Notes: generated by a model not told the origin, from the letters alone. DNA of 64,000 bases from Arenicellales bacterium (GCA_965232345.1 OZ246969.1:1280340-1344339); one strand, 5' to 3'; positions 2,289-42,307 are shown, counted from the stretch's first letter. Numbers and translations are program-made.

Positions 2289-2290
2289 GG

Positions 2291-4104: not shown

Positions 4105-4540
4105 TGAGATGGGAAATGGCGGTCTGAATGCCGAACTCGTAGCCTTGCGCGCCGAGTCCGCAGATCACACCGACTGCGATATCAGAAAAATAGGAATGAT
4201 GGCGAAAGTCCTCGCGCTTGTAGATGTTGGACAGGTGAACTTCAACGAACGGAATCGCAGCCGCGATCATGGCATCTCTCAGCGCCACGCTGGTGTGCGT
4301 GTAGGCGGCCGGGTTGATGACGATGAATGCGGTGCCATCGGCTGCCGCGGACTGCACCATTTCAACCAGTTCATGCTCGGCGTTGCTCTGCCTGGCGGTC
4401 AGCTCATGTCCCGCTTCCGATGCGATTTGAGAGGCGCGCCGGTTGATCTCGTCAAGTGTGCGCGCGCCATAGTGCTGCGGCTCTCTTGCGCCGAGCAGAT
4501 TCAGATTGGGGCCGTGCAAGAGAAGAATTTTAGCCATCAT
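4082..4540 (-). CDS. aroQ: Type II 3-dehydroquinate dehydratase
   Basis: 152 aa. [24 protein letters not shown] and the HLSNIYKRE motif are typical of AroQ. Standard aroQ-accBC arrangement. Confidence 0.95.
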
Positions 4541-4675
4541 CGCTTCAGGTCAGAAATCACTTGTGAATTATAGCGATTTTAATGGCAGTTCGAATGATTT
4601 TAATCGCAGTTCATTGCATTTTGCGAATTATCGTTTCAAATACAGCGCTTGAAGCCTGTTGAGTCTCGGACCGCT

Positions 4676-19700: not shown

Positions 19701-21169
19701 TTCGCATCTTTCAGCAGCGCATCGATATCCAGCGCGCTTTCCAGCTGATCGGCCAGTTCATCGAGCGCCATTTCGACTTTGTCTCGATAGGCCAGATCGG
19801 AACTCGCGCCCTGCCGCATCTGGTTCAGCCAAGCGCTTCGAAATGAATCGCTCCAGAAAAGACCATGAGCATAGCAGCCCACCACATTGCCATCTGCGCT
19901 GACCGCGCCGTCCTCTCCATTTTCAGTTCGAATGTACCGGCGGCGCGTATCGCTACCAGTCGTTCTGCCCATGTGAATCTCATATCCTTCAACCGGCTGT
20001 CCGTTTTCCAGGCAGACGCCTTGAAGCGGCCGCACCGTTTTTTCGGTCAGCATTTCGGTTTCGACATCCAGAAGACCCAGGCCATCCGCTTCCTCCGGCG
20101 GTCCCTCGACTCCATGCGAGTCTGAAATCTTGCGCCCCAATAACTGGTATCCGCCGCAAAGTCCGACGACTCTGCCGCCCGCCCTTGCATGAGCGATGAT
20201 ATCGTGGTCCCAGCCCTGCTCTCTCAGATACCGAAGGTCTCCCAATGTTGATTTGCTGCCCGGCAGAATGATGACATCTGTGTCTCGGGGTATCGGTGTG
20301 CCCGGCGCCACGTAATTCAAGTGGACATTGCTCTCAAGGCGCAAAGCATCGAAGTCATCAGAATTCGCAATTCGGGACAGCATCGGCACTGCGATCTTCA
20401 ACTGACCGCCTTCAGCGGGCGATGTGTTTTTCGAAATCACCTCCATTGAGACTGAATCCTCATGCGGCAGCTGGCTGGCAATTCCCAGAAAGGGAATGAC
20501 GCCGCGGCATGGCCAGGAAGTCCGCTTCTCTATATCGCGCCGGCCGCTGTCGAACAGCGAAACATCGCCGCGGAACTTGTTGACGATGAAGCTCCTGATG
20601 AGGGCTGAATCAGCTGAATCCAGGACGGCTTTGGTGCCAACCACGGATGCAATCACACCGCCGCGCTCAATGTCCGCCAAGAGGCAGACAGGCACCTGCG
20701 CCTGTCTGGCAAAACCCATATTCGCGATATCTTTAGCGCGCAGATTGATTTCTGCGGAGCTGCCGGCGCCTTCAACCAGAACCAGGTCAAACTGCTCAGT
20801 CAATTTCCGAAAACTCTGCAGGACGGGTTCCATCAGCGATTGCCGCTGAACGAAATATTCTTTCGCACCCAGGTTGGATACCGCTTCGCCGTGAACAACG
20901 ACCTGCGACTCCCGATCAGTCTGAGGCTTGAGCAGAACTGGATTCAGATCAACGGACGGCTCGATTCCTGCGGCTTGGGCCTGCAGCGCCTGGGCTCGCC
21001 CGATCTCGCCGCCGCTCGGACACGCGGCGGCATTGTTCGACATGTTCTGGGGTTTGAAAGGCGCAACGCGGATGCCGCGTTTCACGGCCGCGCGGCAAAG
21101 CCCGGCGACGATCACGGACTTGCCGACATCCGAGCCCGTGCCCTGAATCATTAGAGCTGCTGTATTCAA
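19691..21169 (-). CDS. cobQ: Cobyric acid synthase
   Basis: N-terminal CobQ/CobB ATPase domain (LMIQGTGSDVGKS) and a C-terminal GATase domain (GLCGGYQLLG ... HGLF). Start is uncertain: a TTG at 21169 gives MNTAALMIQG, while the track ORF starts at TTG 21217. Confidence 0.9.
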   Translation of the reverse strand: MNTAALMIQGTGSDVGKSVIVAGLCRAAVKRGIRVAPFKPQNMSNNAAACPSGGEIGRAQALQAQAAGIEPSVDLNPVLLKPQTDRESQVVVHGEAVSNLGAKEYFVQRQSLMEPVLQSFRKLTEQFDLVLVEGAGSSAEINLRAKDIANMGFARQAQVPVCLLADIERGGVIASVVGTKAVLDSADSALIRSFIVNKFRGDVSLFDSGRRDIEKRTSWPCRGVIPFLGIASQLPHEDSVSMEVISKNTSPAEGGQLKIAVPMLSRIANSDDFDALRLESNVHLNYVAPGTPIPRDTDVIILPGSKSTLGDLRYLREQGWDHDIIAHARAGGRVVGLCGGYQLLGRKISDSHGVEGPPEEADGLGLLDVETEMLTEKTVRPLQGVCLENGQPVEGYEIHMGRTTGSDTRRRYIRTENGEDGAVSADGNVVGCYAHGLFWSDSFRSAWLNQMRQGASSDLAYRDKVEMALDELADQLESALDIDALLKDANYA

Positions 21170-21466
21170 TTTCGCGGGCCGAGCTTCATGTAAGTGACGA
21201 AGAGCGGTGCAGCACAATTTTTTCGAAGATTTCCATGCAGACGAAAGACTGATTCGACTCTTTGTGTGACTTCAGCAGGCTGAGTTTTGGAAAGTGAATA
21301 AACACAGACAGATTCGGCCGCAGCCGCATCATTCCTGTGAATTTTAATTCGAACACAATACTGTGTGGGTTATTGAAATTCGTATAATTCACTCACAATC
21401 AGGGAATTGATGAGTCGATCCCACATTTATTTCAACACTGGAAATCGTATCACAGGAGAAGTGAAA

Positions 21467-22479: not shown

Positions 22480-25377
22480 GTGAACCACACCCGCAAAAGT
22501 AACATCATTTACTGCCTGCTGCTGTCTCTAGTCGTGCATGCGGGGCTCTTGGCCACTTTCGTGCATGCGGTGAAACGCCCGCCCGAGCCAATTGCACTGA
22601 TCACGCCGATACAGGTCGCGTTGGTACATGAAATTTCCGATTCACTGGGAAATTCCCAATCTGAATTCGGCGGCATTGATACAGACAACACCTTAAGTGG
22701 GCAGGAAGCGAAAAAAGCACTGGAGAAATCCGCGGCATTATCCCAACCCTCAGTATCAGATCAGTACGTTGCCGAGTCTGAAAATCTCCAGGTTTCGGAA
22801 ACTGCGCCGGTTGACCAGACAGTCCAACCCGCTGAACCACAGCCGGAACCTGTTCTAGAAACGAGTGATCCGATTGTCCCTGAAACCGAGATAACCAATG
22901 ACGAGAATGCAGGCAGCATTCAAGCGAAAAACTCAATTTCAGAGTTGGAAACTGAGCCCGCTCATAACGATGACATTGAGATTAGTGTATCGAATCGAGA
23001 GTTTATCAGTGAGCCAGTTGCAGTAGAGGAATTGAGTCAAGAACCGCAAGACATGCCAGATTCGGTTCCAGTTGATCAGAAATTGGAATTTGTGCAGGCA
23101 CCGCAGGATTTTGATGTTCCTGCCGATTTGCCGACTGAAGTTGCTTCATTGGCTGAGCCGGAGAACCTCGATCGATTGGAGAATGTTCCAGAACCGATTG
23201 CAATGCCAGTTCGCACGTCACCGAGTGCGCTAGAGGCGGTGAAGACTGCTGTTGAGAGCAGTGAACCACCGCCTGCATTGGAGAATGCTATCGAATCTGA
23301 GTCGATCGCCGCGAAACAAGCACTGCCGAAAGAAGAATCAGCAATCTTGGAAAACCCCTCTGCTTCACCCACGGAGAGCTTGCCTGTTGAAATTCCGTTG
23401 GAAGCCGAAACTGACTGGGATCAGATGACAGTTGAGCTGGCTTCATCAATCGATGAATTGAATGACTCCGCTGAATTTGAATCCAATGCCCCACCAGAGT
23501 CGGTTGCTGACCTGGCTTCTGCCTCTCCCATTCAGTTGACCGCACTTGATATAGACAGTCAGTACTTCAGCTCGAACAGCACTTTGACTGACATTAAAGA
23601 AGTCGCCGCGACAGAACCGGATTCTACTACCGAAGAATTTCAGGACCAGACACTGGAAGTTCCTCTTTCAAGCGATTATCCGCAGTCGGTTGTTTCAGAT
23701 GAATACGAGTCTGAATCAATTGCCTCAGTTCAGCCGCTGCAGGAAGAAAAGCTGGAGTTGCCGGATAGCCCTTCGGTTTCGCCCGAAGAGAGCATAGCGG
23801 TCGAAGTTCTACCAGAACCCGAAACAGACTGGGACCAGAGGACAGTCGCGTTGGTTACGTCGCTGGAAGTGCTGGATGACTTGGTTGAGCCCAGTATCGG
23901 TCCCTCTCCGGAACCGGCTCCTGACCTGATTCCCGCTCCTTCCATTCAATTGACGGCGCTCGATATCGACAGCCAGTACATCAGCATGACCAGTGCTTTG
24001 ACTGAGATTGAAGATATTGCCGCGCCCGCATCGGCGCCTGCTCTTGAACACTTTCAAGACAATAATGTAGAAGTCTCTGTTGAGAGCAATGCGCTGCCAC
24101 CCGTCCTTTTCAATGACCGCGAATCTGAGTTGATCGCTGCTATTCAGACAACGCCGCAGAATACAGAACCGGAGATTCCGGAAATTCCCTCTGTTTCACA
24201 AGAACAGAGCTCAGCTGTCGAAGTTGTGCCAGAACGTGAAACCGACTGGGATCAGCGAAGAGTGGCATTGACTTCGTCGACAGACGAATTGGATGGTCCG
24301 ATTGAGTTTGTAGTCAGTTCTTCTCCAGAACCTGTTGCTGACTTGATTCCCGAATCCCCGATTCAGTTGAGCGCGCTTGATATTGACAGTCAATACCTGA
24401 GCATGACGCATGCTTTGACCGAGATTGCAGAAGTTGCTGCGACAGAGTTGGAATCGAATGTCGAGAGCGTTCGAGAGGATGAAGTCATTCTTGATGCAGA
24501 GGATGCCGATCAATTCGCAGGCATTCTTCCTGATTTCGAACTGAATGAAGACTCATCTAGAATTATCGAATTTTCGATTGATGAAGTTGAGACTGAAACG
24601 CTTTCTGCAGATGAGCTTGATACTCAGTTTGTGAGCATAGCGGACTTTGATACATACATTGTGGCGAGAACTCTTCCCGAAGTGGATTCAATTGCTGTAG
24701 CTGAACTGGAAGCCATCCAGAGTGATAGACCTGTTGAACAACCGCAAACTGAATCAAGTGAATTGTCTGCATCAGTCGCAGAATCAGCACCTGAACCCAT
24801 AGAAGAAGAGCTTGCTAAAACAGTTGAATCGGAACCGGCTTCTGCTCAGGTGGAAAAGTCGCCCGTACCTGTTGTTTCCTCTGATGAACAGCTAGCCGCG
24901 ATGGAAGAACAACCACCTCTAGAGGCCGATAAGGAATCGGCTTTGCCTGAATCTGTCCAAAAGGAACAACCGAAGTTACCAAAACAGTTCTTTGCAGCCA
25001 AACAGTCTGAACTTGCACAACCCTCTGCATCGGAATTGAAGATTGATACAAGCGCTGCGCAGCAGGCTTCGCTCGGCAGGGCAGCAGGTGAATCACTGCC
25101 CAAATACGGAGTGAAAGGTCTGCCAAATCCAACTCCGAAGTACCCTCGCCGCTCGCGTGCGAAAGGAGAGCAGGGGAAAGTCATTCTTCAGGTGGTTGTC
25201 AATCAGAAAGGCCGCGCTGATGAAGTTACGGTTTTCAAATCGAGCGGCTACTCAAGACTTGACAAGGCGGCAAGAAAAGCGGTCAGGAAGTGGAGGTTCA
25301 AGCCCGCTCAAAAAGACGGACGATCAATTCAAGGAATTGTTCAGGTGCCGATATCTTTCGTGCTTGAACAGTCTTGA
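22480..25377 (+). CDS. tonB: TonB-family energy transducer with a very long acidic repeat-containing spacer
   Basis: 965 aa (GTG start). N-terminal anchor IIYCLLLSLVVHAGLLATFVHA. C-terminal TonB domain YPRRSRAKGEQGKVILQVVVNQKGRADEVTVFKSSGYSRLDKAARKAVRKWRFKPA. About 800 aa of Glu/Asp/Ser/Pro-rich sequence lies between them. Confidence 0.75.
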   Translation: MNHTRKSNIIYCLLLSLVVHAGLLATFVHAVKRPPEPIALITPIQVALVHEISDSLGNSQSEFGGIDTDNTLSGQEAKKALEKSAALSQPSVSDQYVAESENLQVSETAPVDQTVQPAEPQPEPVLETSDPIVPETEITNDENAGSIQAKNSISELETEPAHNDDIEISVSNREFISEPVAVEELSQEPQDMPDSVPVDQKLEFVQAPQDFDVPADLPTEVASLAEPENLDRLENVPEPIAMPVRTSPSALEAVKTAVESSEPPPALENAIESESIAAKQALPKEESAILENPSASPTESLPVEIPLEAETDWDQMTVELASSIDELNDSAEFESNAPPESVADLASASPIQLTALDIDSQYFSSNSTLTDIKEVAATEPDSTTEEFQDQTLEVPLSSDYPQSVVSDEYESESIASVQPLQEEKLELPDSPSVSPEESIAVEVLPEPETDWDQRTVALVTSLEVLDDLVEPSIGPSPEPAPDLIPAPSIQLTALDIDSQYISMTSALTEIEDIAAPASAPALEHFQDNNVEVSVESNALPPVLFNDRESELIAAIQTTPQNTEPEIPEIPSVSQEQSSAVEVVPERETDWDQRRVALTSSTDELDGPIEFVVSSSPEPVADLIPESPIQLSALDIDSQYLSMTHALTEIAEVAATELESNVESVREDEVILDAEDADQFAGILPDFELNEDSSRIIEFSIDEVETETLSADELDTQFVSIADFDTYIVARTLPEVDSIAVAELEAIQSDRPVEQPQTESSELSASVAESAPEPIEEELAKTVESEPASAQVEKSPVPVVSSDEQLAAMEEQPPLEADKESALPESVQKEQPKLPKQFFAAKQSELAQPSASELKIDTSAAQQASLGRAAGESLPKYGVKGLPNPTPKYPRRSRAKGEQGKVILQVVVNQKGRADEVTVFKSSGYSRLDKAARKAVRKWRFKPAQKDGRSIQGIVQVPISFVLEQS
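23293..24534 (+). repeat. Three diverged tandem ~414-bp (138-aa) repeats inside the tonB-like gene
   Basis: Repeat units start near 23293, 23707 and 24121. Each contains ...ETDWDQ(M/R)(T/R)V(E/A)L...P(S/I)IQL(T/S)ALDIDSQY(F/I/L)S...LT(D/E)I. Landmark ATTCA(G/A)TTGA occurs at 23530, 23944 and 24361 (offsets 414 and 417). Confidence 0.85.
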
Positions 25378-25476: not shown

Positions 25477-26730
25477 ATGCCATTCCTGTCTCTTCTTGAT
25501 GATCGGGCCAAACCTAAAGGTTCCAGAGACCCGCTTGGCTTTGAAATGATTTGGACACATTATGGGCGGCAGGTAATCGGCAATCTTACGACGATCACAA
25601 ATTCGTTGACGAATTTCGCTGTTGCCATTCTCGGATTCCATTGGGCAAATGAAATTTGCAAAGATCTGCCGGATTCAGATCGGCACACCAAAGTTCGAGA
25701 TACCTTTCTTCGCTACGAGCAGGTGGTTGCTTATCTGCGCTTTCTGTCTGAAGATACTGGCAGCATCATGGGCATTACACGGGTCATTCGACGCATGAAG
25801 GATGATCAATCACAAGTCAAGCTTGGCATTGGAAATGAAGAGCAGATTCTCAGTGACCAAGTCAGCTACGGACTGTGGGGCTTGTATTCCTCAGCGATGG
25901 ATGCCACCAGATTGATCAAGGGAAATGATAGGATTCCTATAGATCAGGGACTGGTTATCGCGAAAAGAATTGAAGCTAAGCTGGAAAAAAAACAATTGAC
26001 TGATCTGATTAAGAGTAAGAAACCAGTGTCGAAGAGTGAATTGAATGAGTTGGCAACTGCTTTTCGCGACGCCATCAAATCCGAAAAGGTAAGAGAAAGT
26101 CTACGAGATGCCTTGCTGAAAGGAACGGAGAATACTCAACTGCAGCAAGCGCTCTGGTCTTGTACTCAAGAAATAGCTGAACGCAAAGAGGCGGTCAACA
26201 GTGTTGCAGACTTTATCGATAAAGTAAAGAGTTGTGATCCTGATTCAGAGTTGGCTGAGCGGCTTTCCGAAATTGAACGGGTTGAGCGAGTGCTGGTTGC
26301 AGCTAACAACATCTTCAACTATTGTCGTCGGAAGGATGGCTCAAGGATTGATGAAATAGTGGGTGCCTTGAAGCAACATTACAGCCATCATCACATGTCG
26401 GAATTACCGAGACTCGATGGTTTCCCAAAATCACTTGGTAATCAGCAAATCAATCTCCTGAATAAACTAATGGAGACATTGAGGCAGTGTGATTACGCCG
26501 ACGTTATTCGATGGCTCCTCGAACTGAATCAGTTCGTAATGAAACGGCGAGACGGCGCGCCTTGGGTACATTTGGAGAACGACAAAATTCTCCGAGTCAA
26601 AGTGCCAAGTGAAACGGCGTCTTTGCTTGATCCGCACGAACTTGAGAGCCAGTGGGACTACGACTATTTCATCGGATCTTACATCACAGTCGCAAATCAG
26701 GGATTCAAGCTGGGATGGAAAACGCGGTAG
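25477..26730 (+). CDS. Hypothetical protein, ORF-A of the PLD/SNF2 operon (no recognisable domain)
   Basis: 417 aa. N-terminus MPFLSLLDDRAKPKGSRDPLGFEMIWTHYGRQVIGNLTTITNSLTNFAV. The remainder looks predominantly helical and charged. The 3' end overlaps the ORF-B start. Confidence 0.7.
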   Translation: MPFLSLLDDRAKPKGSRDPLGFEMIWTHYGRQVIGNLTTITNSLTNFAVAILGFHWANEICKDLPDSDRHTKVRDTFLRYEQVVAYLRFLSEDTGSIMGITRVIRRMKDDQSQVKLGIGNEEQILSDQVSYGLWGLYSSAMDATRLIKGNDRIPIDQGLVIAKRIEAKLEKKQLTDLIKSKKPVSKSELNELATAFRDAIKSEKVRESLRDALLKGTENTQLQQALWSCTQEIAERKEAVNSVADFIDKVKSCDPDSELAERLSEIERVERVLVAANNIFNYCRRKDGSRIDEIVGALKQHYSHHHMSELPRLDGFPKSLGNQQINLLNKLMETLRQCDYADVIRWLLELNQFVMKRRDGAPWVHLENDKILRVKVPSETASLLDPHELESQWDYDYFIGSYITVANQGFKLGWKTR

Positions 26731-28760
26731 TATCAGATCAGTTGATTCAACGGCTGGCTGACCGAAAGGTAAAGGCGGCAGTATTCACTACATTCAATTT
26801 CGAGCCGGAGTTTTTCGATCTTGAGGTGGTTCCGCTCCTGCTGCCTGGAAAGAATCAATTCTCCTCTCATGCGCCAATCAAACTGTTCCAGGTACGCGAA
26901 ACCTTGCGGGAATCGTCGATCGCTTTGGAGGTATTTTTCGACCTGAAGATATTTCGTAAATCTACCTGTACCTCACCTGGAATGGAATACCTGTCTCATG
27001 GTGTTCATCGCGGAAATAGCGCCTTTCATCCTAAACTTGCATTCATTCTCGTTGACGACGAAACAACAGAACGTGAAGTTCTTTTGGTCGGGGCCGGTTC
27101 CAACAACCTTACGATGGCAGGCTGGTGGGACAATATTGAATGCGCGCACTGGGAAACGGTTGATCCCCAGAGTGTCGATACTAAATTCCTTGAGCAACTG
27201 AAAGCTGATGTGCAGTGGTTGAAAAACGAGCGGATGTTGTCGTCCGAAGACGATCGCTCAGCATTGGATCAGGTGGACAGATTTCTGAACGAATGTTCTG
27301 GCAGCCAGGCTTCTGGGGCTGACATAGATTTCTTTTACTACGGCATAGCGGACAGCAATCAGTCCGGCAGATTTGTTGGATACGCAGAAAACGAAATGAA
27401 AAGAATTCTTTCGCGGCACAGAAACTGGACGCTGGAGATCATATCTCCGTTCTTTTCAGAGGATAAGCATAGTGATTTGCATACACGGTTTTTTGACTTG
27501 GGTGTGCGCGAAATTCATATTTTTCTCCCAAAAAATCAGGAAAACGAAGCCGTATGCCACCGGGATTACTATGACTTTATCAATGAGCAGTCAAATATCC
27601 ATTGGGCAGAGTGGGAAAATTCCGTAGCTAGTTCAATCGGTCTCAGTGGAAGAGCGTTTCGTCATCTGCATGCGAAAATCTATCACTTTTACAACCAGAC
27701 TGAATCGTGGGTATTTGTGGGCTCTGTAAATTTCACGTACAAGGCGTTTAACGAAAATATCGAGGCTGGATTTTTTGTGAAACTGCCCAATCCGAATCCG
27801 CTTTTGACAGCGATAGCAGATACCAGTGCCATAGACAATTTCGATCCGCGACAGGAAGAGACTCATGTTGGTGAAGAGGAGGCATCAGCGGAACCAATTC
27901 CGATCATCGACCTGTCCTACGACTGGTTGAAAAAGTCGTTGGCCGGCATAACCGAACCAGAAAAGAATTACAGGATCAGCATACTTTCACCGGAAAGCAA
28001 TAGCGTAGTCAGTGACTGGCTGATCACTGGAAGCCGATGTCAATATGATGGAGACACGACTCAGTTGGAGTTGCTTCTGAAAGGCGGTTCGTTTGTGACA
28101 GTACGCGGGTATGACAGTCAAACCAAAGAACCATTTCCTGATCACTTGCTGATGATCAAACAGACGAACTGGAGCCATAAACCATTGGAGCTGCCGAATA
28201 TATCCCCTCAACAAATTTTGGCGATCTATACTGGCATGTCACATGAACAACGTCAGATGCTGCTCATGGACGCTCAAATGCGTCACTTGATATTGAATGG
28301 GGAGGGAGGTGAAATTACCTTGTCAGCTGAACCATTTACGGAGTACCAATTCTTCAGTGAGTACGCGGAGATATTTCACTCACTGAAACGCTTACGCCAC
28401 CGAATGATTGAAGCGAAAAGAGCTGGCGATGAAAGTTCGTTCAATTATTACCTCACCGGTACAGGCATTGACAGTCTGCCAACTTTTTTGGACAGAATTC
28501 AAGATGAGAATTTCAAAATCAGCAAGGTGTCTGCCTACCTCATTTTGTTGTGCGCCAAGGAAATTTATCAAGAACCCGCGCTTTCCGATTGTCATGGAGT
28601 GGCGAAAGAATTGATTAAAACGGAAGTGAACATCACGAAAATCAAGAATTCTGATGCGATACAGCTTGAGGGGCTAGAAACTGAACAACGAGCAAATTTC
28701 TTTACTTGGTTCGAAACACAGTTTTTCAGAGACTATAAGCCGGTCAGGGAGTCACCATGA
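26715..28760 (+). CDS. Phospholipase-D/HKD superfamily nuclease-like protein, ORF-B
   Basis: 681 aa from ATG 26715 (track ORF starts at 26652). Two HKD-type motifs: FHPKLAFILV...VGAGSNNLT (about aa 105) and HLHAKIYHF...FVGSVNFTYKAF (about aa 317). The C-terminal ~300 aa has no motif I recognise. Confidence 0.8.
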   Translation: MENAVVSDQLIQRLADRKVKAAVFTTFNFEPEFFDLEVVPLLLPGKNQFSSHAPIKLFQVRETLRESSIALEVFFDLKIFRKSTCTSPGMEYLSHGVHRGNSAFHPKLAFILVDDETTEREVLLVGAGSNNLTMAGWWDNIECAHWETVDPQSVDTKFLEQLKADVQWLKNERMLSSEDDRSALDQVDRFLNECSGSQASGADIDFFYYGIADSNQSGRFVGYAENEMKRILSRHRNWTLEIISPFFSEDKHSDLHTRFFDLGVREIHIFLPKNQENEAVCHRDYYDFINEQSNIHWAEWENSVASSIGLSGRAFRHLHAKIYHFYNQTESWVFVGSVNFTYKAFNENIEAGFFVKLPNPNPLLTAIADTSAIDNFDPRQEETHVGEEEASAEPIPIIDLSYDWLKKSLAGITEPEKNYRISILSPESNSVVSDWLITGSRCQYDGDTTQLELLLKGGSFVTVRGYDSQTKEPFPDHLLMIKQTNWSHKPLELPNISPQQILAIYTGMSHEQRQMLLMDAQMRHLILNGEGGEITLSAEPFTEYQFFSEYAEIFHSLKRLRHRMIEAKRAGDESSFNYYLTGTGIDSLPTFLDRIQDENFKISKVSAYLILLCAKEIYQEPALSDCHGVAKELIKTEVNITKIKNSDAIQLEGLETEQRANFFTWFETQFFRDYKPVRESP

Positions 28761-31700
28761 GCATTAGACCGATCGATCTGGATACAGCGCGAGAATTGCT
28801 TGATTTCTCAGGTGGTGACCAGGATTTGATCAATCTGGGAGAGCAGCAGCTCAAAGGCACCGTCGCACTTCACAACATGATCGCACACCCAGAAATAGGT
28901 GTGGGGTATCTCGCTGATGAAGTCGGGATGGGCAAGACCTATATGGCACTCGGTGTTGTTGCATTGATGCGCTATTTCAATCCGGCTTTACGGGTCCTCT
29001 ATATCTGCCCGAGTCGAAACGTACAGGAAAAATGGTATTCAAGAGAGTACCTGAATTTCTGCAAGCACAATGTCAAAGTAAGCCACTTCCGAATCAGAGG
29101 CCCTGACGGAAAACCGGCAGCACCAGCCATCAGCTGCCGCAGTGTCACCGAATTGATCCACCACGCAACGACTGGTTTTCACGCAGATTTTTTTGTTCGC
29201 ATGAGCGCTTTCAGCATAGCGTTGAGCAAGGATGATGAAAAAGCATGGAAAGCCAAGTTGGAAGAATTGCATGAGTTGTGGCCTGCATTCAAGGTTCCGA
29301 AAACTCGCGTAACATCTAGGTCAGTCAAAAATCGCTATGCATTGGCACTCAACGAGGTGTTGCCGGAATTTGACCTGGTGGTGATTGATGAAGCTCACAA
29401 TTTCAAGCATGACCTTGAGAGCAGCGACAGGAACCGCGTACTGTCGACTGCGCTGGGTTTTCGGAAAGCCGAAAACTGTGTAAGCCGCGTCAAGAATGCG
29501 CTCCTGTTGTCAGCCACACCTTACGACAGAGTTATCAACCAATTGTGCAATCAGCTGAAGCTTGTTGGGAAGGGTGACTTACTGCCTGAAGATATCACTC
29601 AGAAAGATAGGGACAGGCTTGAACAGTGCTTGTCAAAATTCATGGTGCGTCGATTGAACGTCCTTGATATTGCTGGCGAGCCACACACGCGCAACATGTA
29701 CCGAAAGGAATGGCGCTCTGGAGAGAAAGCTGAAATAAATCTTGATTCCGATCTTCAGAAGTTGGTGACAGCGCTTGTTCAGAAAAAAGTGGGCGAGACG
29801 CTTGCGAAAGACGGAGGTTTGCCAAGTTTTCAAACCGGATTGCTCGCGTCTTTCGAAAGTTATGCAGAAACCACCAAATCCGATGATCCTGTAGAGTTTG
29901 ACGGCGACATAGCAGACAAAGGCGGAGTGCATGATGCCCGGGACAAGAATGTAATTGGCGCTATATCAGACAGCTTTATTCAAGCGGACTTGGGAAGAAG
30001 AACTCTGCCGCACCCGAAAATGGATTCGGTATCGGAACAGTTGGCCAAGGAGCTTTTTCAGCGAGGGCGAAAGCAACTTGTTTTTGTGCGTCGAGTAAAG
30101 AGTGTGAAGGAGATTAAGCGGAAACTGGATGATCTTTACAATAGTGATCTTGCTGAATATATCCGCAGTGAGTTGAAGTCGTTCCCCGAAGAATTGAGTT
30201 TACTTGAAGAAGTAGTCGAAAATTATTGGCGAATTAGCCATTCCCAGGATGAAGATATTTCGGGTGGTGAATTTATCGCTGATTACTTTGAAGAAGGCAC
30301 AGACGAGGTGGATGACAAACAGCCCCCCAAGAAAGATACATTGTTCGCTTGGTTCTTTAGAGGAGAATTACCACCTGAGTTAAGCCAACTATTCAAAAAC
30401 AAACGAGGAGGTTTCGCTGAACCTAATTCGATGCGGAAAGGACTGGTTGCAAAAAATCAAAGTAGTTCTCTGCTGATGGAGATCAACTGGGTGAACCTGT
30501 TGGTTCAGTGTCAGGGCGAGGACATCGACCAATTGCTCAACGACTACGGGGATAAGGTGGCGGATATTGCGAGAGATTTCATTAGCGCTTCTGACAAAAG
30601 CAACTGGTTTGTGGAATTCAATGCTTGTCAATATGCATTCGTGCACTGGTACTCCGAGTATAAACAGTTACCAAAGCTTGAGACACTAGCGAATTATTTG
30701 AAGCCAAAATCCGCCTCTGACAAGAAAAATTCATATTCTGCTCAACGATGCGGTGCCTTGCTGCAAACCTATACGTTCTATTGCGCCTTGCACAAATCCA
30801 ACCTGCTGGATTCACTGTTTCCTCACCTGAAATCAATTCTAACTGACCTGTTGAATAATGGAAAAGAAATCTCTGAGGAACAGTTGCAGAAGCTGAGTAT
30901 TCACGGTGCCCTTTTGTCATTGTGCCTTAGAACCGGACATGGTTTGATCGACTTGTATCTTGCACGAATTAGACAGGGTGCGGACAAACCAACCGCCGAA
31001 TCTGGCGGTGCATGGATGGATGATTTGGTTTCAGTATTGAATCGGCAGTCGACCCAAAATGACTTCAACACATATTGGGAGTGTCTGAAGTTATCTGAAA
31101 ATCTTGACTTGATCATCAAGACTAATTTTCCCGAAATCTACGACAAATCACCCCAAGAATATCGACTGTTTCTGGCACGAGCCTTGAGTCCTCTTGTTCC
31201 CATAATGGGGGCGACAGGCGATACAGCATCGACACGGTCGGCTCAGGCGCGCAAGTTTCGAATGCCAGGTTATCCTCTGGCGCTCATCAGTACGGATGTA
31301 TTTCAAGAAGGAGAGGACCTGCATACATTTTGTGATTCTGTAATGCACTACGGATTATCTGGAACACCAGTGAGCATAGAGCAGAAGATCGGTCGAGTTG
31401 ATCGAGTGGGATCACAAGCCGAACGTCGGCTGTTGAAAATCAAAACAGGTGCGGCATCAACAGACGATTTGATTCAGGTTTACTTTCCCCATGTCAAAGA
31501 AAGCATTGAAGTTTTTCAGGTGCGCCAACTGTGCCACAACATCAATGACTTCTTAAAATCTCTGAATTCAGTCGGTTCAATGGCCAGCGCGAATCAGGAC
31601 CGGGTCAACCCTGACGAGGAGATCATCAATCGGTCGGCTGTCCCAGATCAAATCGACAGTCTTCTGAAATCTCCCTTTGAACCAAAAGTGCTGAAAAGTG

Positions 31701-32599
31701 AGCCGCAATTCAACCAAATTGAATGCATCCGAGCTGCAGAACAACGCACTCAGAGCGTAACCAGAAATATTGATCAGCGATTGAAAGAGATTCTCGACGA
31801 AGAAGAGGTATTGGATGCGGAAGACATTGAGTTAGTGAGAGATGATGGCACGAAAATTCCAGTACGGATCAGCTTGAAGTCCGCGCGTGCCAGCGGTGAA
31901 ATTCTGCTCCATGTTCTTTGGAAAGGCGAAACTGTCTCGTTGCGCGAAATGAATCGAGCTGAGTTGAATGAACATATGCAATCTGCTCGCAGGCGGATTT
32001 ACCGGACACACGCGAGCGAAATCGGGAATGGTGAAATTCAGCTTGGTTATGACTCCGAACTGCTTGTGGGTGATGAAACTGCGACTAGTTTCGATGAGAT
32101 AAAGACGTTTTTGAATCGATTTGAGCGAACCGAATATTTCGAACATTACCTTAAACCCACATCCGAGTTAATCCGGCAGTATTGGGAAAAAGCCCAAACT
32201 GATGGGCAAAAAGAATTTGATCAGGGCCTCGTACTAATGGAAGGACTCGAAACGGACGGGGCATTAGAACTGACGTTTCTGTTTGGTTCGCAAAATTATG
32301 TACGTACTCATCAAGTGCGAATATATGAGTTGGACGGGCGCTGTGTTTTTTTCGCTGAGGCAGCTTCTGCGGAAAGGGTAAATGATTTAACTTGCCAGCA
32401 AATTATTAAGCTCACCTGGCTCTACAATCGGAATGTCGATCTTGCGGAGTTCATGCTTGATGACAAAGGAACTCTGGTTGGCAGAGTAGTCCACCCAGTC
32501 CGCGGACTCGACTACAAAGAATTTGCCTATTGCGCTTATACGCTGGCCGTAGCTACAGATCGTCTTGAGTATCTCATTGATAATCGCGACAGATATTGA
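28757..32599 (+). CDS. SNF2/SF2-type helicase-like ATPase with a large inter-lobe insertion and a ~390-aa C-terminal extension, ORF-C
   Basis: 1280 aa. Walker A DEVGMGKT (aa 54-61), DEAH box VIDEAHNF (aa ~209-216), LSATPY (~251-256), TDVFQEGEDLH (~846-856), QKIGRVDRVGS (~876-886). ATGA overlap with the ORF-B stop. Confidence 0.85.
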   Translation: MSIRPIDLDTARELLDFSGGDQDLINLGEQQLKGTVALHNMIAHPEIGVGYLADEVGMGKTYMALGVVALMRYFNPALRVLYICPSRNVQEKWYSREYLNFCKHNVKVSHFRIRGPDGKPAAPAISCRSVTELIHHATTGFHADFFVRMSAFSIALSKDDEKAWKAKLEELHELWPAFKVPKTRVTSRSVKNRYALALNEVLPEFDLVVIDEAHNFKHDLESSDRNRVLSTALGFRKAENCVSRVKNALLLSATPYDRVINQLCNQLKLVGKGDLLPEDITQKDRDRLEQCLSKFMVRRLNVLDIAGEPHTRNMYRKEWRSGEKAEINLDSDLQKLVTALVQKKVGETLAKDGGLPSFQTGLLASFESYAETTKSDDPVEFDGDIADKGGVHDARDKNVIGAISDSFIQADLGRRTLPHPKMDSVSEQLAKELFQRGRKQLVFVRRVKSVKEIKRKLDDLYNSDLAEYIRSELKSFPEELSLLEEVVENYWRISHSQDEDISGGEFIADYFEEGTDEVDDKQPPKKDTLFAWFFRGELPPELSQLFKNKRGGFAEPNSMRKGLVAKNQSSSLLMEINWVNLLVQCQGEDIDQLLNDYGDKVADIARDFISASDKSNWFVEFNACQYAFVHWYSEYKQLPKLETLANYLKPKSASDKKNSYSAQRCGALLQTYTFYCALHKSNLLDSLFPHLKSILTDLLNNGKEISEEQLQKLSIHGALLSLCLRTGHGLIDLYLARIRQGADKPTAESGGAWMDDLVSVLNRQSTQNDFNTYWECLKLSENLDLIIKTNFPEIYDKSPQEYRLFLARALSPLVPIMGATGDTASTRSAQARKFRMPGYPLALISTDVFQEGEDLHTFCDSVMHYGLSGTPVSIEQKIGRVDRVGSQAERRLLKIKTGAASTDDLIQVYFPHVKESIEVFQVRQLCHNINDFLKSLNSVGSMASANQDRVNPDEEIINRSAVPDQIDSLLKSPFEPKVLKSEPQFNQIECIRAAEQRTQSVTRNIDQRLKEILDEEEVLDAEDIELVRDDGTKIPVRISLKSARASGEILLHVLWKGETVSLREMNRAELNEHMQSARRRIYRTHASEIGNGEIQLGYDSELLVGDETATSFDEIKTFLNRFERTEYFEHYLKPTSELIRQYWEKAQTDGQKEFDQGLVLMEGLETDGALELTFLFGSQNYVRTHQVRIYELDGRCVFFAEAASAERVNDLTCQQIIKLTWLYNRNVDLAEFMLDDKGTLVGRVVHPVRGLDYKEFAYCAYTLAVATDRLEYLIDNRDRY

Positions 32600-33990: not shown

Positions 33991-35241
33991 CTACAGCCAA
34001 AACGATGCGATCGGTAGTGCGAAAAACTGATTGCTGAACTGAACAGCTTTCTTTCCTGGATGGACCACGATTCCGCATTTGAATTTCTTCCCAATGTCGC
34101 CTTTCAGCGCTTCCAGACTCCGGAAGTTTCTTGAAGAGATATTGCTTGTGGATTTCACCTCGATTCCAACAATTTCGCCGCGCTGTGACTCAAGCACGAA
34201 ATCAACCTCCTGCCCCGAGCTTGTCCGATAGTGATACAAACGAGTGCGCGTTGACGAGAATGTTGCTTGTTTGGCCAGTTCCACCGCCGCGAAGTTTTCC
34301 ATCACCCTGCCCATCTGCGTCCGATCTGCAGACTGAACAAACCCCAGCTCAGCATTCAGCAGGTGCAGCAGAAGATTGAGATCGCAAAGGTAGACCTTCG
34401 GTGTCTTGATCAGCCGTTTGCCGAGATTGGGTGTCCAAGCCGGCACCGAAAGTGTCAGGAACAGACTTTCCAGCAATATCCGATACTTCTTGACGGTTAT
34501 GTGATTCAGAGCCAAATCCCGCGCCAGAGATGATTCGTTCAGCAGTCCGCCGGCGCGCGCGGCCAGCAGACTCAGCATATCCGGCAGACTCGCCAATTTC
34601 TGCACTTCCAGCAAAGAGTGAACATCCCGATACAGAACAGTCTGAAGGTAGCTGTCGCACCACTCCTGCCGCAGCGCTCTGTCTCCGATCGTCAGCAATT
34701 CAGGAAATGTCGCGTCTGCCAGAACCTGCTCCAGATCAGACTCAGACGCATCGCCAAAGTGAAGTTCGCTGCAGAAGACTCTGTCAATAAAGCTCCCCTC
34801 TCTATTCTTGTCCAGCTCGCGCGCCGACAATGGCAGGAGCGTATGCGTGGACATTCTTCCAGCCAGCGCGTCAGAAAGCTGTGGCAATGCCATCACATTG
34901 GCGGACCCTGTGAGCAGAAATTTTCCGCGCCCGCCGCCATCAGTCTGACGATTTTCATCAACGATAATTTTCAGCGGTCGAAATAGCTCAGGCACCAGCT
35001 GAATCTCATCCAGCACCGCATTGCCTCTCAGACTGCGGAGGAAGGCTTCGGGGTCATGCTGTGCGGCGGACCGAGTCTGCAGGTTGTCGAAAGTGAAGTA
35101 ATTCGCCTTGTGTCGGCTTTCCGAAATTCGCATGACCAAAGTTGTTTTGCCAGATTGCCGGGGTCCGGCAACATAAACCGATGGAAATGCTGAGAGTGAA
35201 GCAACAATCCTGTCCTCGATCAGGCGGTCGATGTACTGCAT
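33991..35241 (-). CDS. AAA-family ATPase (AAA_14 + DUF4143 architecture)
   Basis: 416 aa. Walker A GPRQSGKTT near the N-terminus and LLTGSA further on. The C-terminal region is typical of DUF4143 proteins. Confidence 0.8.
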   Translation of the reverse strand: MQYIDRLIEDRIVASLSAFPSVYVAGPRQSGKTTLVMRISESRHKANYFTFDNLQTRSAAQHDPEAFLRSLRGNAVLDEIQLVPELFRPLKIIVDENRQTDGGGRGKFLLTGSANVMALPQLSDALAGRMSTHTLLPLSARELDKNREGSFIDRVFCSELHFGDASESDLEQVLADATFPELLTIGDRALRQEWCDSYLQTVLYRDVHSLLEVQKLASLPDMLSLLAARAGGLLNESSLARDLALNHITVKKYRILLESLFLTLSVPAWTPNLGKRLIKTPKVYLCDLNLLLHLLNAELGFVQSADRTQMGRVMENFAAVELAKQATFSSTRTRLYHYRTSSGQEVDFVLESQRGEIVGIEVKSTSNISSRNFRSLEALKGDIGKKFKCGIVVHPGKKAVQFSNQFFALPIASFWL

Positions 35242-35763: not shown

Positions 35764-36183
35764 CTATGCGGTCCAAGGATTGATAGTGGCCAATCCGGCC
35801 GTCTCGAACGGCAATGTGTCCCGCGTCGCAACGATCATGGAATTAGCCGCGGCGGTTGCCGCGATGAATCCATCGGATACTGAAATTGCCTGCCCAGCTG
35901 ATCGCGCTTTCGCCATCAGTTCAGCATAAGCTTGAGACTCAACCAGAGTGAACGATAGCACACGACCGGCGAATCTCGGAATCATAACCTTCTCCAGATT
36001 GTCGTGCAACAGCTCTCGGCGACGACCTTCCGGAAGAGTCTGTACACCAGATCGAAGCTCAGCGACTGAAACAGCAGAAATGTACAACGTTTCTAACGCC
36101 TGTGCGTCAAGCCATTGGATAACCCGCGGTTCTGGAACGAGGCGCAACGGTTCTGAAACCACGTTCGTATCAACCAGAATCAT
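35764..36183 (-). CDS. vapC: Type II toxin, PIN-domain ribonuclease VapC/FitB
   Basis: 139 aa starting MILVDTNVVSE with a PIN acidic-residue pattern. 4-nt overlap with the upstream antitoxin gene. Confidence 0.9.
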   Translation of the reverse strand: MILVDTNVVSEPLRLVPEPRVIQWLDAQALETLYISAVSVAELRSGVQTLPEGRRRELLHDNLEKVMIPRFAGRVLSFTLVESQAYAELMAKARSAGQAISVSDGFIAATAAANSMIVATRDTLPFETAGLATINPWTA

Positions 36184-36431
36184 TCGAAATCAATCGGTTT
36201 GACTGACTCTCTATCGCGTCTGGTAAAGGTTTCGAATTCCTCGTCAGTCAATTCAATTTGACGGCCAGCATCAAATAGCAGCGACCCCAGCCCAATTCGG
36301 TCTTTCGACAAAACCGCGGCTTCCAGGATGGCGCGCACCTCAGCTTCAGTGCTGCGGTTGCGCTTTGCTGCACGCACACGAAGTGCGCGATGCACCTCGT
36401 CAGGTACATTGCGAACGGTAAGAACAGCCAT
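36180..36431 (-). CDS. vapB: Type II antitoxin, ribbon-helix-helix (FitA/VapB/Arc type)
   Basis: 83 aa. MAVLTVRNVPDEVHRALRVRAAKRNRSTEAEVRAILE is a typical RHH antitoxin N-terminus. Confidence 0.85.
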   Translation of the reverse strand: MAVLTVRNVPDEVHRALRVRAAKRNRSTEAEVRAILEAAVLSKDRIGLGSLLFDAGRQIELTDEEFETFTRRDRESVKPIDFE

Positions 36432-37558: not shown

Positions 37559-38167
37559 ATGATGGATGATGAAGCAAAACAGCAGCACAGCGTCACCATG
37601 AAGCGCAAGAAGCAGGCGATCGATGAGCAGATCGCCCTCGCACAGGAAAAACGCGGGGTGCTTGTCTTGATCACCGGCGACGGCAAGGGCAAGACCACCT
37701 CCGCCTTCGGCACCGCAATCCGCGCTCTGGGACACGGAATGCGGGTTGGAATCATCCAGTTCATCAAAGGCACTCAGGCAACAGGCGAAGTCATCTATCT
37801 GACACAGCAGCATCCGCAGCTGGCCTACCATGCCATGGCAACTGGCTTCACCTGGGACAGCCGAGACTGGGACAAGGACAAAGCCGCCGCTGAGGAGACT
37901 TGGGTTTATGCCACACGCATGCTGGCGGACCCCGAAATCCAGCTGGTAGTGCTGGACGAACTGACCTATATGCTTACGTACGAATACCTGAGCATGGCCG
38001 ATGTGATTGAGGCTGTCCGCCAGCGCCCGGCAGGACAGAATGTGATTATTACGGGCCGCGGCGCGAAGCCGGAACTGATTGCAGTCGCTGATACCGTCAG
38101 CGAGATCGCTGCGGTCAAGCACGCATTCAAAGACGGTGTGAAAGCCCAGCCCGGTGTGGATTTCTGA
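37559..38167 (+). CDS. cobO: Cob(I)yrinic acid a,c-diamide adenosyltransferase (copy 1)
   Basis: 202 aa. GDGKGKTTSAFG P-loop and the QFIKG...DELTY pattern of the CobA/CobO/BtuR family. Confidence 0.92.
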   Translation: MMDDEAKQQHSVTMKRKKQAIDEQIALAQEKRGVLVLITGDGKGKTTSAFGTAIRALGHGMRVGIIQFIKGTQATGEVIYLTQQHPQLAYHAMATGFTWDSRDWDKDKAAAEETWVYATRMLADPEIQLVVLDELTYMLTYEYLSMADVIEAVRQRPAGQNVIITGRGAKPELIAVADTVSEIAAVKHAFKDGVKAQPGVDF

Positions 38168-39033
38168 TGCCCAGGTGGTTGTTTCGAGCCGGATTGGCAT
38201 GCTGTTTTCTGAGCGCGGTTGCGAGCGCCGAGCAGACAGCCGCGTTGCCAACCATCGTCTCGACTCACCTTTGCGCTGACCAGATGGCTCTCAGCCTGGC
38301 GGCGCCGGAACAGATTCTTTCGCTCAGCTACAAGAGCCAGGACCCACTTCGGTCCCCCCATGCCGCGCGTGCGCTGGCCTATCCCGCCAATCGCGGCAGC
38401 AGCGAAGAAGTGATCCAGTTCAAACCGGATATCGTGCTGGCCTCGCGGCGCTGGCGAAACCACCCGCAGCAGCGGCAGTTCACTATGCTGGACATACGAG
38501 TGGTGGTGGTCCCCCTGTCCAACAGCTGGCCGGAGATATTCGCCAACACCCAGTGGCTGGCCGATCAGATCGGGCAGCCGGAACGCGGTCAGACCCTGAT
38601 TTCGGATGTGCGGCGGCGCTTGCAGGTCTTGCAGGAATCGGTGAGAGTGTCAGGCGAACCCGAGCAGAGCCTGCTGTACCTGCGCCCCAATGGCGGCAGC
38701 AGCGGCGAGGGCACCTACATTGACATGCTGATCCGCGCGCTGGGCTTTCGCAATCATGCGGCGGCGCTGGGGCTCAAAGGCTGGGGGCAGCTGTCACTGG
38801 AGAATATCGTGATGCATCCGCCGGATTATTTTCTGCTCAGCGGACATGTCCGCGACAGCACACGCGGCAACAGCCGGCTGTCGCGTCATCCGCTGCTGCA
38901 GCTGCTGCTGGACGAGCGGACGGTTCTGGTGCTGCCAGCCGACACAGGCTATTGTGCCGACTGGCAGATTATCGACACCGCAGAGTACCTTGCCGAACAG
39001 TTGGCGGCAGCAGCGAACGGAGCTGGCCGATGA
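38167..39033 (+). CDS. Periplasmic binding protein of a BtuF/FecB-type ABC importer
   Basis: 288 aa with a signal peptide. Class III periplasmic-binding-protein-like sequence. TGATG overlap with cobO, followed by a FecCD permease and an ATPase. Confidence 0.75.
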   Translation: MPRWLFRAGLACCFLSAVASAEQTAALPTIVSTHLCADQMALSLAAPEQILSLSYKSQDPLRSPHAARALAYPANRGSSEEVIQFKPDIVLASRRWRNHPQQRQFTMLDIRVVVVPLSNSWPEIFANTQWLADQIGQPERGQTLISDVRRRLQVLQESVRVSGEPEQSLLYLRPNGGSSGEGTYIDMLIRALGFRNHAAALGLKGWGQLSLENIVMHPPDYFLLSGHVRDSTRGNSRLSRHPLLQLLLDERTVLVLPADTGYCADWQIIDTAEYLAEQLAAAANGAGR

Positions 39034-40052
39034 TCGGACAGGCAGCTCATCGACGCTATCTTCTCTTGAACAGCGGCCTGCTCATCCTGTTGCTGCTGTT
39101 GGCGCTGATCTCACTTCGTATCGGTCCCGTGCCGATACTCACCAGTGAGCTGATCGACGCCCTGATGTACAGTGACCGTTCCGACCAGGCGTTGCGCCAT
39201 GGCATGATTCTCACCGAGCTGCGCCTTCCGCGGCTGCTGCTGGCGATACTGGTGGGCGCCTCTCTGGGGGTTTCGGGCGCCGCGTTGCAGGGGCTGCTGC
39301 GCAACCCGCTGGCCGAGCCGGGCCTGCTCGGCGTATCATCGTGTGCTGGGCTGGGCGCGGTGATCTGCCTCTACTTCGGACTCAGTGCGCTGAGCATCTG
39401 GCTGCTGCCGGTCATGGCCATGACCGGCGCCGCGCTGGCCACCCTGCTGCTCTACTGGATCGGTCGTCGCCGTGCCGGCAACCTGACCCTGATCCTCAGC
39501 GGCATCGCGCTGTCATCACTGGCCGCGGCGCTGACTTCGCTGGCCCTGAATCTGGCGCCCAGCCCGGCTGATGTGCGGGATATGGTGCTGTGGCTGCTGG
39601 GATCACTCAACTACCGCAGTTTCACCGACATTCAATTGTGCCTGCCTTTTGTGATCGCGGGCCTTGCTCTGCTGCTGAGCTGCGGGACCAAGCTGGATGC
39701 ATTGACCTTGGGCGAGGGCGAGGCGCAGAGTCTCGGTGTCAATCTGCCCGCCCTGCAACGACGGATCATACTCGGCACCGCCCTGTCCGTCGGCTCCTGT
39801 GTTGCAGTGACCGGGGCGATCGGTTTTGTCGGGCTCGTGGTGCCCCACCTTTTGCGCCGCTGGGTGGACTACCATCCGTCGCGGCTGCTGCTGAGCAGCG
39901 CGGTGGGCGGCGCAGTGCTGCTGCTGACTGCCGATATCGCCCTGCGTTTGCTCAGCAGCACGCAGGAAATCATGCTCGGTGTGGTCACCGCGCTGATCGG
40001 CGCGCCGTTCTTTCTGCTGCTGGTGCTGCAGCAGAAGCGGGAGGCATTATGA
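39030..40052 (+). CDS. FecCD/BtuC-family ABC permease
   Basis: 340 aa from ATG 39030 (overlaps the binding-protein stop). Typical LRLPRLLLAILVGASLGVSGAALQGLLRNPLAEPGLLGVS pattern. The track ORF begins upstream at 38952. Confidence 0.9.
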   Translation: MIGQAAHRRYLLLNSGLLILLLLLALISLRIGPVPILTSELIDALMYSDRSDQALRHGMILTELRLPRLLLAILVGASLGVSGAALQGLLRNPLAEPGLLGVSSCAGLGAVICLYFGLSALSIWLLPVMAMTGAALATLLLYWIGRRRAGNLTLILSGIALSSLAAALTSLALNLAPSPADVRDMVLWLLGSLNYRSFTDIQLCLPFVIAGLALLLSCGTKLDALTLGEGEAQSLGVNLPALQRRIILGTALSVGSCVAVTGAIGFVGLVVPHLLRRWVDYHPSRLLLSSAVGGAVLLLTADIALRLLSSTQEIMLGVVTALIGAPFFLLLVLQQKREAL

Positions 40053-40876: not shown

Positions 40877-41210
40877 TCGCTTGTGAGAACCTGTGAGGAT
40901 GACACACATCACTTCCAAGCCGCCTGCCTGGCGCCGCAATGGAATCGACTCAATGCATAGATTGACTGTTCTGCATGACTCGATGCAGATTCATGCGGAA
41001 AAATGACCGGAATTTCAACGATGTTCTGGAAAATCACAGGATTTACAGCCTTTGGAGGACTGCAAATGAATATAGTTAACACCGTTGCGGGGCATCGGAG
41101 CTCCGTCACCGGCCGGGTGTATCCGCGCCGCGGCCGGATTCCGTGCAGAACAAATGCACCGCCCGTTTTCCGTCACCTTGTTCCTGAACTCTATTCGAAG
41201 GAGCCTGACC

Positions 41211-42296: not shown

Positions 42297-42307
42297 GGGC
42301 GATCGGG

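Follow-up and report, generated by a model that had tools for sequence, protein, structure and literature searches.

A YbjN- and type III secretion chaperone-like module associated with the Snf2-type helicase of a candidate Azaca-like anti-phage system

The subject of this study is a three-gene operon in a stretch of 64,000 nucleotides from an Arenicellales bacterium (GCA_965232345.1 OZ246969.1:1280340-1344339), which is referred to as the window. By sequence comparison its open reading frames (ORFs), ORF-A, ORF-B and ORF-C, form a candidate Azaca-like anti-phage system, the PADLOC candidate PDC-M27. ORF-C, the last gene, encodes a Snf2-type ATPase of 1280 amino acids (aa). Azaca-like nuclease-helicase defence is already known and catalogued as a PADLOC candidate. 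Within the literature searched it appears to be new that the tail of ORF-C is a YbjN/type III secretion system (T3SS) chaperone-type module, that this module is a separate fourth gene in many phyla and that the extra length of the ATPase maps to an insertion inside RecA lobe 2. The literature search revealed no paper linking a YbjN/T3SS-chaperone-like domain to ZacC-like helicases, and the search on PDC-M27 no paper making the YbjN link. In our judgement it is rather likely that ORF-C is the ATP-driven motor of an Azaca-type three-gene nuclease-helicase system and that its chaperone-like tail serves as an assembly or auto-regulatory adaptor.

After motif VI of the ATPase 394 aa remain, close to the approximately 390 aa of an initial annotation made from the sequence alone. 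About 50 poorly conserved residues, modelled with low confidence, precede the C-terminal units, and the following ~290 aa are modelled as two alpha/beta units. The AlphaFold model of the tail (m85e82723bc0e; 38 homologues) has a mean predicted local distance difference test score (pLDDT) of 81 and a predicted template modelling score of 0.72, with pLDDT >90 from about aa 989. Unit 1 (31718..32122, plus strand, aa 988-1122; pLDDT about 85-95) is predicted as alpha-beta-beta-beta-alpha-beta-beta-alpha (DSSP). Unit 2 (32165..32581, plus strand, aa 1137-1275) is the YbjN / T3SS-chaperone-like (TY-chaperone) domain, modelled in the order helix, five strands, two helices, two strands and a long helix. 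The alternating beta/alpha pattern that the initial annotation had seen at the C-terminus is reproduced by the model, and the last ~110 aa quoted there were found verbatim at aa 1171-1275.

The TY-chaperone superfamily comprises YbjN (PF10722; 6vu7, AmyR 5fr7), the class I T3SS chaperones and TY-Chap1-3. In a Foldseek search of the tail against PDB structures, the best 26 matches all were T3SS chaperones or YbjN-family proteins (E 3.8e-4 to 2e-2, target TM 0.46-0.68), including 2plg, ExsC (3kxy), PA14_16140 (8q8o), YbjN (6vu7), SycE, SycH, SpcU and SycN-YscB (1xkp). AmyR, DR_1245 and CesT were found at lower rank. No credible match was found among viral structures (Foldseek, BFVD), and the PADLOC scan of the tail gave no match.

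Sequence evidence for unit 2 came by way of intermediates. With a profile of aa 1000-1280 as query, 275 proteins were retrieved from 1.84 billion representatives: ORF-C-like helicases, fragments, and many stand-alone proteins of 123-146 aa, which align with the final ~100 residues of ORF-C (E about 1e-16 to 1e-8). Alignment of the tail profile with 53 of the stand-alone proteins by hhalign gave a probability of 99.8% (E 2e-29). Pfam assigned YbjN (PF10722) to 25 of these 53, TY-Chap1 (PF22551) to 12 and CesT to four; the best YbjN match, P0179, reached 5.2e-6 and 27.2 bits against a cutoff of 22. Because these intermediates match unit 2 and Pfam YbjN alike, unit 2 is tied to the YbjN superfamily by sequence. 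Judged by profile and modelled fold, unit 2 belongs, as a diverged member, to the YbjN / T3SS-chaperone (TY-chaperone) superfamily. The YbjN/T3SS-chaperone-like C-terminus of the initial annotation is thereby borne out, and the structural comparison proposed along with it returned chaperone/YbjN-type matches only in the top 26.

Outside the ATPase motifs, few parts of ORF-C are as well conserved as unit 2. Invariant columns were read from an alignment (A1) of 38 ORF-C homologue sequences, and within aa 1220-1278 (32414-32590) they comprise T1220, W1221, N1224, D1228, G1242, R1243, H1246, E1255, D1268, E1271 and D1278. N1224, D1268 and E1271 are invariant across phyla in the stand-alone family too, where they correspond to N77, D121 and E124 of P0179. 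The conservation of these polar residues points to a specific site for binding or even catalysis. So dense an invariant polar set is unusual for a chaperone-type fold.

In other genomes the domain is encoded by a gene of its own. The operon of locus L007 encodes a 433-aa PDC-M27A-like protein, a PLD protein, a 1180-aa Snf2 protein and a 133-aa YbjN-like protein, whose gene (9001-9402) overlaps the end of the Snf2 gene by 14 nt. The L007 Snf2 protein is 33% identical to ORF-C and colinear with it from aa 3 to 1052, a range that includes the insertion and the beginning of unit 1. The first half of unit 1 (to aa 1052) thus aligns with this split-type helicase, which continues for ~100 residues. 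On four short metagenomic contigs the small gene likewise overlaps the end of an upstream ORF cut by the contig edge. GTDB was scanned with one genome per species and a 7-sequence subset of the 53-member alignment as query. This revealed 52 loci in Myxococcota, Acidobacteriota, Planctomycetota, Verrucomicrobiota, Eisenbacteria and others. The arrangement is split in 27 of the 52, where the small ORF starts -80 to +34 nt from the end of an intact ORF-C-like frame of ~1170-1270 aa; in these 27 the helicase frame is preceded by ORF-B-like and ORF-A-like genes. Four loci are fused, with the small ORF lying within a helicase of 1319-1416 aa. The motor is broken or truncated in about eight loci, and in about 12 an ORF-C-like motor could not be recognised in the 6 kb upstream.

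The C-terminal chaperone-like unit is a discrete module, as it is part of the helicase in some lineages and separate from it in others. The 133-aa protein has no match to any PADLOC hidden Markov model (HMM), and the three-gene model of PDC-M27 therefore misses a fourth component. The ZacC HMM and the shortest PDC-M27C HMM stop about 60-100 positions past motif VI, and the PDC-M27C HMM of 1217 positions has ~370 positions past motif VI with no match to the ORF-C tail. The chaperone-like module therefore represents an addition made in one branch. Several further observations concern these loci. A four-gene version is also seen around position 6000 in L012-L059, with a Snf2 gene of ~1180-1210 aa. 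L030 and L031 retain motor fragments only and look like decayed systems. YbjN-like loci lacking a motor include L028, L032, L034, L041, L057, L060, L062 and L063; in L034 different large ORFs lie upstream of the YbjN-like gene.

Concerning the ATPase itself, RecA lobe 1 (motifs I-III, 28916..29521, plus strand) is modelled with a pLDDT of ~80-92, and its motifs are invariant or nearly so in the 38 homologues. By column conservation, motif I is DEVGMGKT (aa 54-61, 28916-28939), motif II is DEAH (aa 211-214, within VIDEAH at aa 209-214, 29381-29398) and motif III is SATP (aa 252-255, 29510-29521). Motif V, LISTDVFQEGEDL (aa 843-855), and motif VI, QKIGRVDRVG (aa 876-885), are equally invariant or nearly so. 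Motifs I-III and V-VI lie where the initial annotation had placed them (aa 54-256 and ~846-886). Pfam ResIII at aa 50-255 (32.9 bits) and Helicase_C at aa 823-885 (29.1 bits) both exceed their cutoffs; SNF2-rel_dom is borderline, with 23.4 bits slightly under its cutoff of 24.9. Secondary structure of the core was taken from an AlphaFold model of aa 1-960. The span between motifs III and IV (29522..30040, plus strand, aa 256-428) is helical and in part of low confidence (pLDDT <50 at aa 310-327 and 348-398), and the PDC-M27C HMMs are continuous over aa 27-471. From SATP to the motif IV strand (aa 256-438) there are ~183 aa, an ordinary extended Snf2 spacing.

The first beta-alpha unit of lobe 2 (30041..30184, plus strand, aa 429-476) carries motif IV (LVFVRR), as indicated by the model and by the excision described below. 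Motif IV lies at aa 439-446 (HPKMD...GRKQLVFVRRVKSVKEIKRKL), and aa 417-457 (LPHPKMDSVSEQLAKELFQRGRKQLVFVRRVKSVKEIKRKL) have the typical Snf2 layout of helix, buried strand and helix. In the model the strand at aa 439-443 sits between helices 420-435 and 447-472; K439, F443, V444, R445 and R446 are invariant. The remainder of lobe 2 (31190..31561, plus strand, aa 812-935) comprises GATGDT...R...F, motifs V and VI and the conserved post-VI helix IQVxFPxVxESIE. With a mean identity of 0.92, aa 841-880 form the most conserved block of ORF-C. Nearly all of the top 50 Foldseek matches of the core in PDB are Snf2 ATPases, the exception being two RIG-I chains; they include ALC1, Chd1, SsoRad54, ISWI, SWR1, INO80, ZorD (8qy7) and RapA (8spg), with E 7e-7 to 2e-4. 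RapA is the sole PDB sequence match for the core, and the full-length profile against PDB sequences gave marginal Fft3 only (E 0.17). By sequence and model, ORF-C is a Snf2-family (superfamily 2, SF2) ATPase; motifs I-VI, the III-IV span and the fold all fit, and Pfam, the motifs of the homologues and Foldseek agree with the SNF2 assignment of the initial annotation. As a member of this class ORF-C is predicted to translocate on double-stranded DNA, driven by ATP.

The initial annotation had further described a gap of ~590 aa between the two RecA lobes. Here it had to be corrected: motif IV had been missed, and the excess lies within lobe 2. When aa 477-811 were excised in silico, the Helicase_C match extended from model positions 50-110 (29.3 bits, E 1.1e-6) to 6-110 (37.5 bits, E 3.1e-9), covering aa 429-476 joined to aa 812-885. 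Because excision extends this match, the extra length is an insertion of ~335 aa within lobe 2 (30185..31189, plus strand, aa 477-811), placed after motif IV and ahead of the GxTG/motif V region. A single inter-lobe linker of 590 aa is ruled out by the same test. AlphaFold models aa 529-810 as helices only, with pLDDT mostly 80-95. The insertion has its own invariant residues (W532, F533, R535, G536, R725, H728 and D732) and is colinear and conserved with the L007 helicase; searches of Pfam, PADLOC and PDB sequences gave no match for it. That it serves as a docking platform for partners, ORF-A or ORF-B in the proposal of the initial annotation, is speculation.

How unusual this spacing is depends on the family chosen for comparison. 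From motif III (aa 252-255) to motif V (aa 843) ORF-C has 588 aa, which is ~300-345 aa more than in DrmD or RapA: the DrmD HMM (1040 positions) has its II/III block at 211-296 and its V/VI block at 565-656, a III-to-V distance of about 270-290, and in Escherichia coli RapA the distance is about 240. The ZacC HMM (1019 positions), with its II/III block at 231-292 and its V/VI block at 836-915, has a III-to-V distance of about 544. In the PDC-M27C HMM (1217 positions), which is aligned to position 456 and resumes at 746, it is long and comparable. From this motif spacing it follows that the insertion is a hallmark of the ZacC/PDC-M27C clade and normal for the closest subfamily. The exceptional length claimed in the initial annotation thus stands against DrmD and RapA but not against ZacC and PDC-M27C.

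All three genes lie on one strand with overlapping stops and starts and form a translationally coupled operon. ORF-A (25477..26730, plus strand, 417 aa) takes the position of ZacA and matches PADLOC PDC-M27A (7.3e-19); it gave no credible Pfam domain at E<=10, no DUF6361 and no ZacA match in PADLOC. ORF-B (26715..28760, plus strand) is a PLD-family (HKD) nuclease resembling ZacB (Pfam PLDc_2 7.8e-10; PADLOC ZacB 3.3e-20, PDC-M27B 6.9e-18). Its start is probably ATG 26715, which gives 681 aa, rather than the mechanically listed GTG 26652. From this in-frame ATG, ORF-B shares 16 nt with the end of ORF-A, compared to 79 nt from the GTG; homologues of ORF-B have 667-672 aa, nearer to 681 aa, and most align from about residue 10-27 on. 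ORF-C (28757..32599, plus strand) was confirmed as an open frame of 1280 aa. It is the final gene of the operon, overlapping the end of ORF-B by 4 nt, and is ZacC/PDC-M27C-like (PADLOC PDC-M27C 5.4e-71, ZacC 3.6e-30). A word-indexed search of 5.8 billion proteins found 2068 homologues of ORF-C at E <= 0.001; the best 120 of these are mostly full-length (~1255-1335 aa, few shorter), share 45-64% identity and come mainly from marine gammaproteobacteria, e.g. Microbulbifer, Dasania, Mangrovimicrobium and Vibrio splendidus. With this number of homologues and mostly full-length best matches, ORF-C is not a chance frame. Promoter and terminator sites in the operon were no more numerous than in shuffled sequence.

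The PDC-M27A, B and C models are matched by the adjacent ORF-A, ORF-B and ORF-C in this order. The locus is filed under PDC-M27 and not under canonical Azaca because ORF-A is without DUF6361. A gene of similar size occupies the ORF-A position in the Vibrio splendidus locus and in L007. A housekeeping RapA-like enzyme was considered as well; it is ruled out by the PLD partner, the PADLOC matches and the island context.

The name Zac stands for Azaca, and the Azaca (ZacABC) system was reportedly described by Millman et al. in 2022. We know of no account of how Azaca-type systems recognise infection and of no structure for such systems. In the one biochemical study found, ZacA, ZacB and ZacC of Bacillus are all required for cutting of T4 DNA in vitro, and so is the Walker A motif of ZacC (bioRxiv 10.1101/2025.07.10.664194). 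Protection from T-even phages and ATP-dependent cutting of phage DNA by the three proteins together are not known beyond Bacillus Azaca. By analogy with Bacillus Azaca, ATP hydrolysis by ORF-C probably licenses DNA cleavage by ORF-B in a three-protein complex. T3SS chaperones are dimers that wrap extended effector segments. Units 1 and 2 probably pair like such a dimer, within one molecule here and between helicase and small subunit in the split systems, and the paired units may clamp an extended peptide. The favoured ligand is a conserved segment of ORF-A, of ORF-B or of the helicase itself, because unit 2 is highly conserved and carries the same invariant polar residues across phyla. The tail module would then be an assembly or auto-regulatory adaptor linking the state of the motor to licensing of the nuclease.

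Several points weigh against this explanation and its parts. PDC-M27 has no more than candidate status, and the DUF6361 signature reported for ZacA is missing in ORF-A. The lobe-2 core at aa 811-960 is of low confidence in AlphaFold despite its top conservation. Foldseek E-values of the tail are modest (best 3.8e-4), and the fold match holds for at least one unit, the unit that was aligned being unreported. A direct Pfam scan of aa 890-1280 gave no match at E<=10, PF10722, PF05932 and PF22551 included, so that PF10722 is reached only by way of the stand-alone intermediates; the tail profile found nothing among PDB sequences. Unit 1 gave an hhalign probability <1% both against unit 2 and against the stand-alone family. 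It is possibly a second (tandem) chaperone-like domain, with the modelled topology as its sole basis: the second, weaker unit of the initial annotation fits the predicted topology but has no sequence signal by hhalign, and is weakly supported. The ligand of the tail, finally, we infer entirely.

The same data can be read differently. The tail might be an infection sensor, in line with the trigger or sensor domain proposed in the initial annotation: on capturing an extended piece of a phage protein, it would set free or activate the motor and the PLD nuclease. T3SS chaperones and ExsC, which are among the top structural matches, bind extended peptides and switch partners. TY-chaperone domains are found repeatedly in conflict systems (PMC9503650). 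Further, the module occurs detached, as a gene of its own, and it is an add-on, since the ZacC and short PDC-M27C HMMs stop about 60-100 positions past motif VI. However, the invariant residues of unit 2 are the same from gammaproteobacteria to Acidobacteriota and Myxococcota, which is atypical for receptors of diversifying phage proteins, and Bacillus ZacABC cuts T4 DNA in vitro without a phage protein, although that ZacC probably is without this tail. We therefore regard a sensor as tentative, with a chance well short of even. In its widest form the infection receptor would be the tail or, in split systems, the fourth-gene protein, and the family a widespread, hitherto unrecognised Azaca-like one of four modules; the receptor would hold an unfolded or extended stretch of a phage protein, much as T3SS chaperones hold effectors, and switch on a motor whose helical lobe-2 insertion holds the PLD nuclease. 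This form is doubtful and a little less probable still. If true, it would give the first example of a defence helicase that is gated by a peptide clamp of the secretion-chaperone type.

A purely structural role, in which the tail dimerises the helicase for oligomerisation or stability with neither ligand nor regulation, would be in line with T3SS chaperones being obligate dimers, with the SycN-YscB heterodimer among the top matches and with a small protein that in split systems could complete a dimer with unit 1. Yet N1224, D1268, E1271 and other invariant polar residues of surface type are common to the stand-alone family and indicate a specific binding site, and the ZacC HMM and the shortest PDC-M27C HMM leave no space for the module, so that folding of the motor does not need it; we consider this role unlikely. 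Finally, the likeness to YbjN could be the coincidence of a generic alpha/beta sandwich in an AlphaFold model, covering an unrelated function, e.g. DNA binding. The missing direct Pfam and PDB sequence matches, Foldseek E-values of only about 1e-3 with query TM 0.2-0.27 and an alignment of only 38 sequences would fit a coincidence. It is made very improbable by the stand-alone proteins, which the tail profile finds down to E about 1e-16 and hhalign aligns at 99.8%, and which match Pfam YbjN, TY-Chap1 and CesT independently, as well as by top 26 PDB matches that all belong to one superfamily.

As to the adaptor explanation, a YbjN-type domain that elsewhere is a separate gene points, by analogy with the chaperones, to a peptide-binding control module. 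N1224, D1268 and E1271 are specific residues for mutation, and the natural pairs of fused and split systems allow comparison. In many genomes the fourth PDC-M27 component is unannotated, which affects the detection and cloning of such systems.

The operon lies in an island of low GC content (44-51%) at about 21-37 kb of the window, which interrupts cobalamin-biosynthesis genes; the flanks have 55-65% GC. They hold a cobQ-like gene on one side (19691-21217, minus strand) and Peripla_BP_2, CobW and CobN genes on the other (38167-46126). Directly 5' of ORF-A lies an ORF of 965 aa (22480-25377, plus strand) with TonB_C at aa 885-962 (2.1e-25) as its only domain; it is unusually long for a TonB-like protein. 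Also in the island, an ATPase of 416 aa with AAA_14 and DUF4143 (33991-35241, minus strand) matches the PADLOC single-gene candidate PDC-S01 (1.8e-135), a second putative defence gene 1.4 kb 3' of ORF-C. A PIN-domain protein of the island (35764-36183, minus strand; PIN 1.1e-13) and a small ORF overlapping its start (36180-36431, minus strand) are probably a VapBC-type toxin-antitoxin pair. No tRNA was found in the window and no integrase in the scanned parts of the island. Vibrio splendidus (L001) has the same operon with proteins of 417, 667 and 1258 aa. Directly 5' of it, at 1129-4750, are bpMoxR, VWA and HEPN RiboL-PSP genes, which constitute a conflict system of the MoxR-vWA type; by these neighbours the family is in a defence island in a second genus. 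In Ectothiorhodospiraceae bacterium BW-2 (L004, CP032507.1) the operon is broken by insertion sequence elements (rve and DDE_Tnp_1 transposases), which lie between the ORF-A-like gene and the helicase and split the PLD gene region.

Among known systems, Azaca shares with the operon three genes in the same order: the first product has no assigned function, the second is a PLD nuclease and the third a large helicase of the SF2/Snf2 type. The ZacB HMM matches ORF-B, the ZacC HMM matches ORF-C in three stretches, and the very long III-V spacing of about 544 positions is shared as well. In contrast to ZacC, ORF-C scores better with PDC-M27C (5.4e-71 compared to 3.6e-30), and the ZacC HMM, ending about 100 positions past motif VI, has no room for the ~290-aa tail of two units. 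From PDC-M27 as catalogued the operon differs in that no PDC-M27C HMM matches the insertion (aa 477-811) or the tail (aa 940-1280) of ORF-C. RapA, ZorD of Zorya and DrmD of DISARM have the Snf2 fold and motifs in common with ORF-C, and the DrmD HMMs match its motif blocks. Unlike ORF-C, RapA and DrmD have only about 240-290 residues from motif III to motif V, compared to 588, and RapA, ZorD and DrmD are without the helical insertion in lobe 2 and without the chaperone-like tail. In the split Snf2 ATPases Ino80 and Swr1 a large insertion docks partner subunits (Rvb1/2). There it falls between motif III and motif IV, at the classical 'major insertion site', whereas the insertion of ORF-C follows motif IV and separates the first beta-alpha unit of lobe 2 from the rest; homology to the Ino80/Swr1 insertion was not detected. 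With the TY-chaperone superfamily the tail of ORF-C shares its predicted fold, the order of strands and helices and the top structural matches. Peptide binding is ascribed to TY-chaperones, and the two-copy form TY-Chap2 provides a precedent for a tail of two units (PMC9503650). They differ from the ORF-C domain in that the latter is not a free chaperone but either part of a Snf2 defence helicase or the product of the gene directly behind it, and in that unit 2 has a motif of its own, W-x-R-N ... G-R ... D-R-x-E-Y, and is too diverged for a direct Pfam match.

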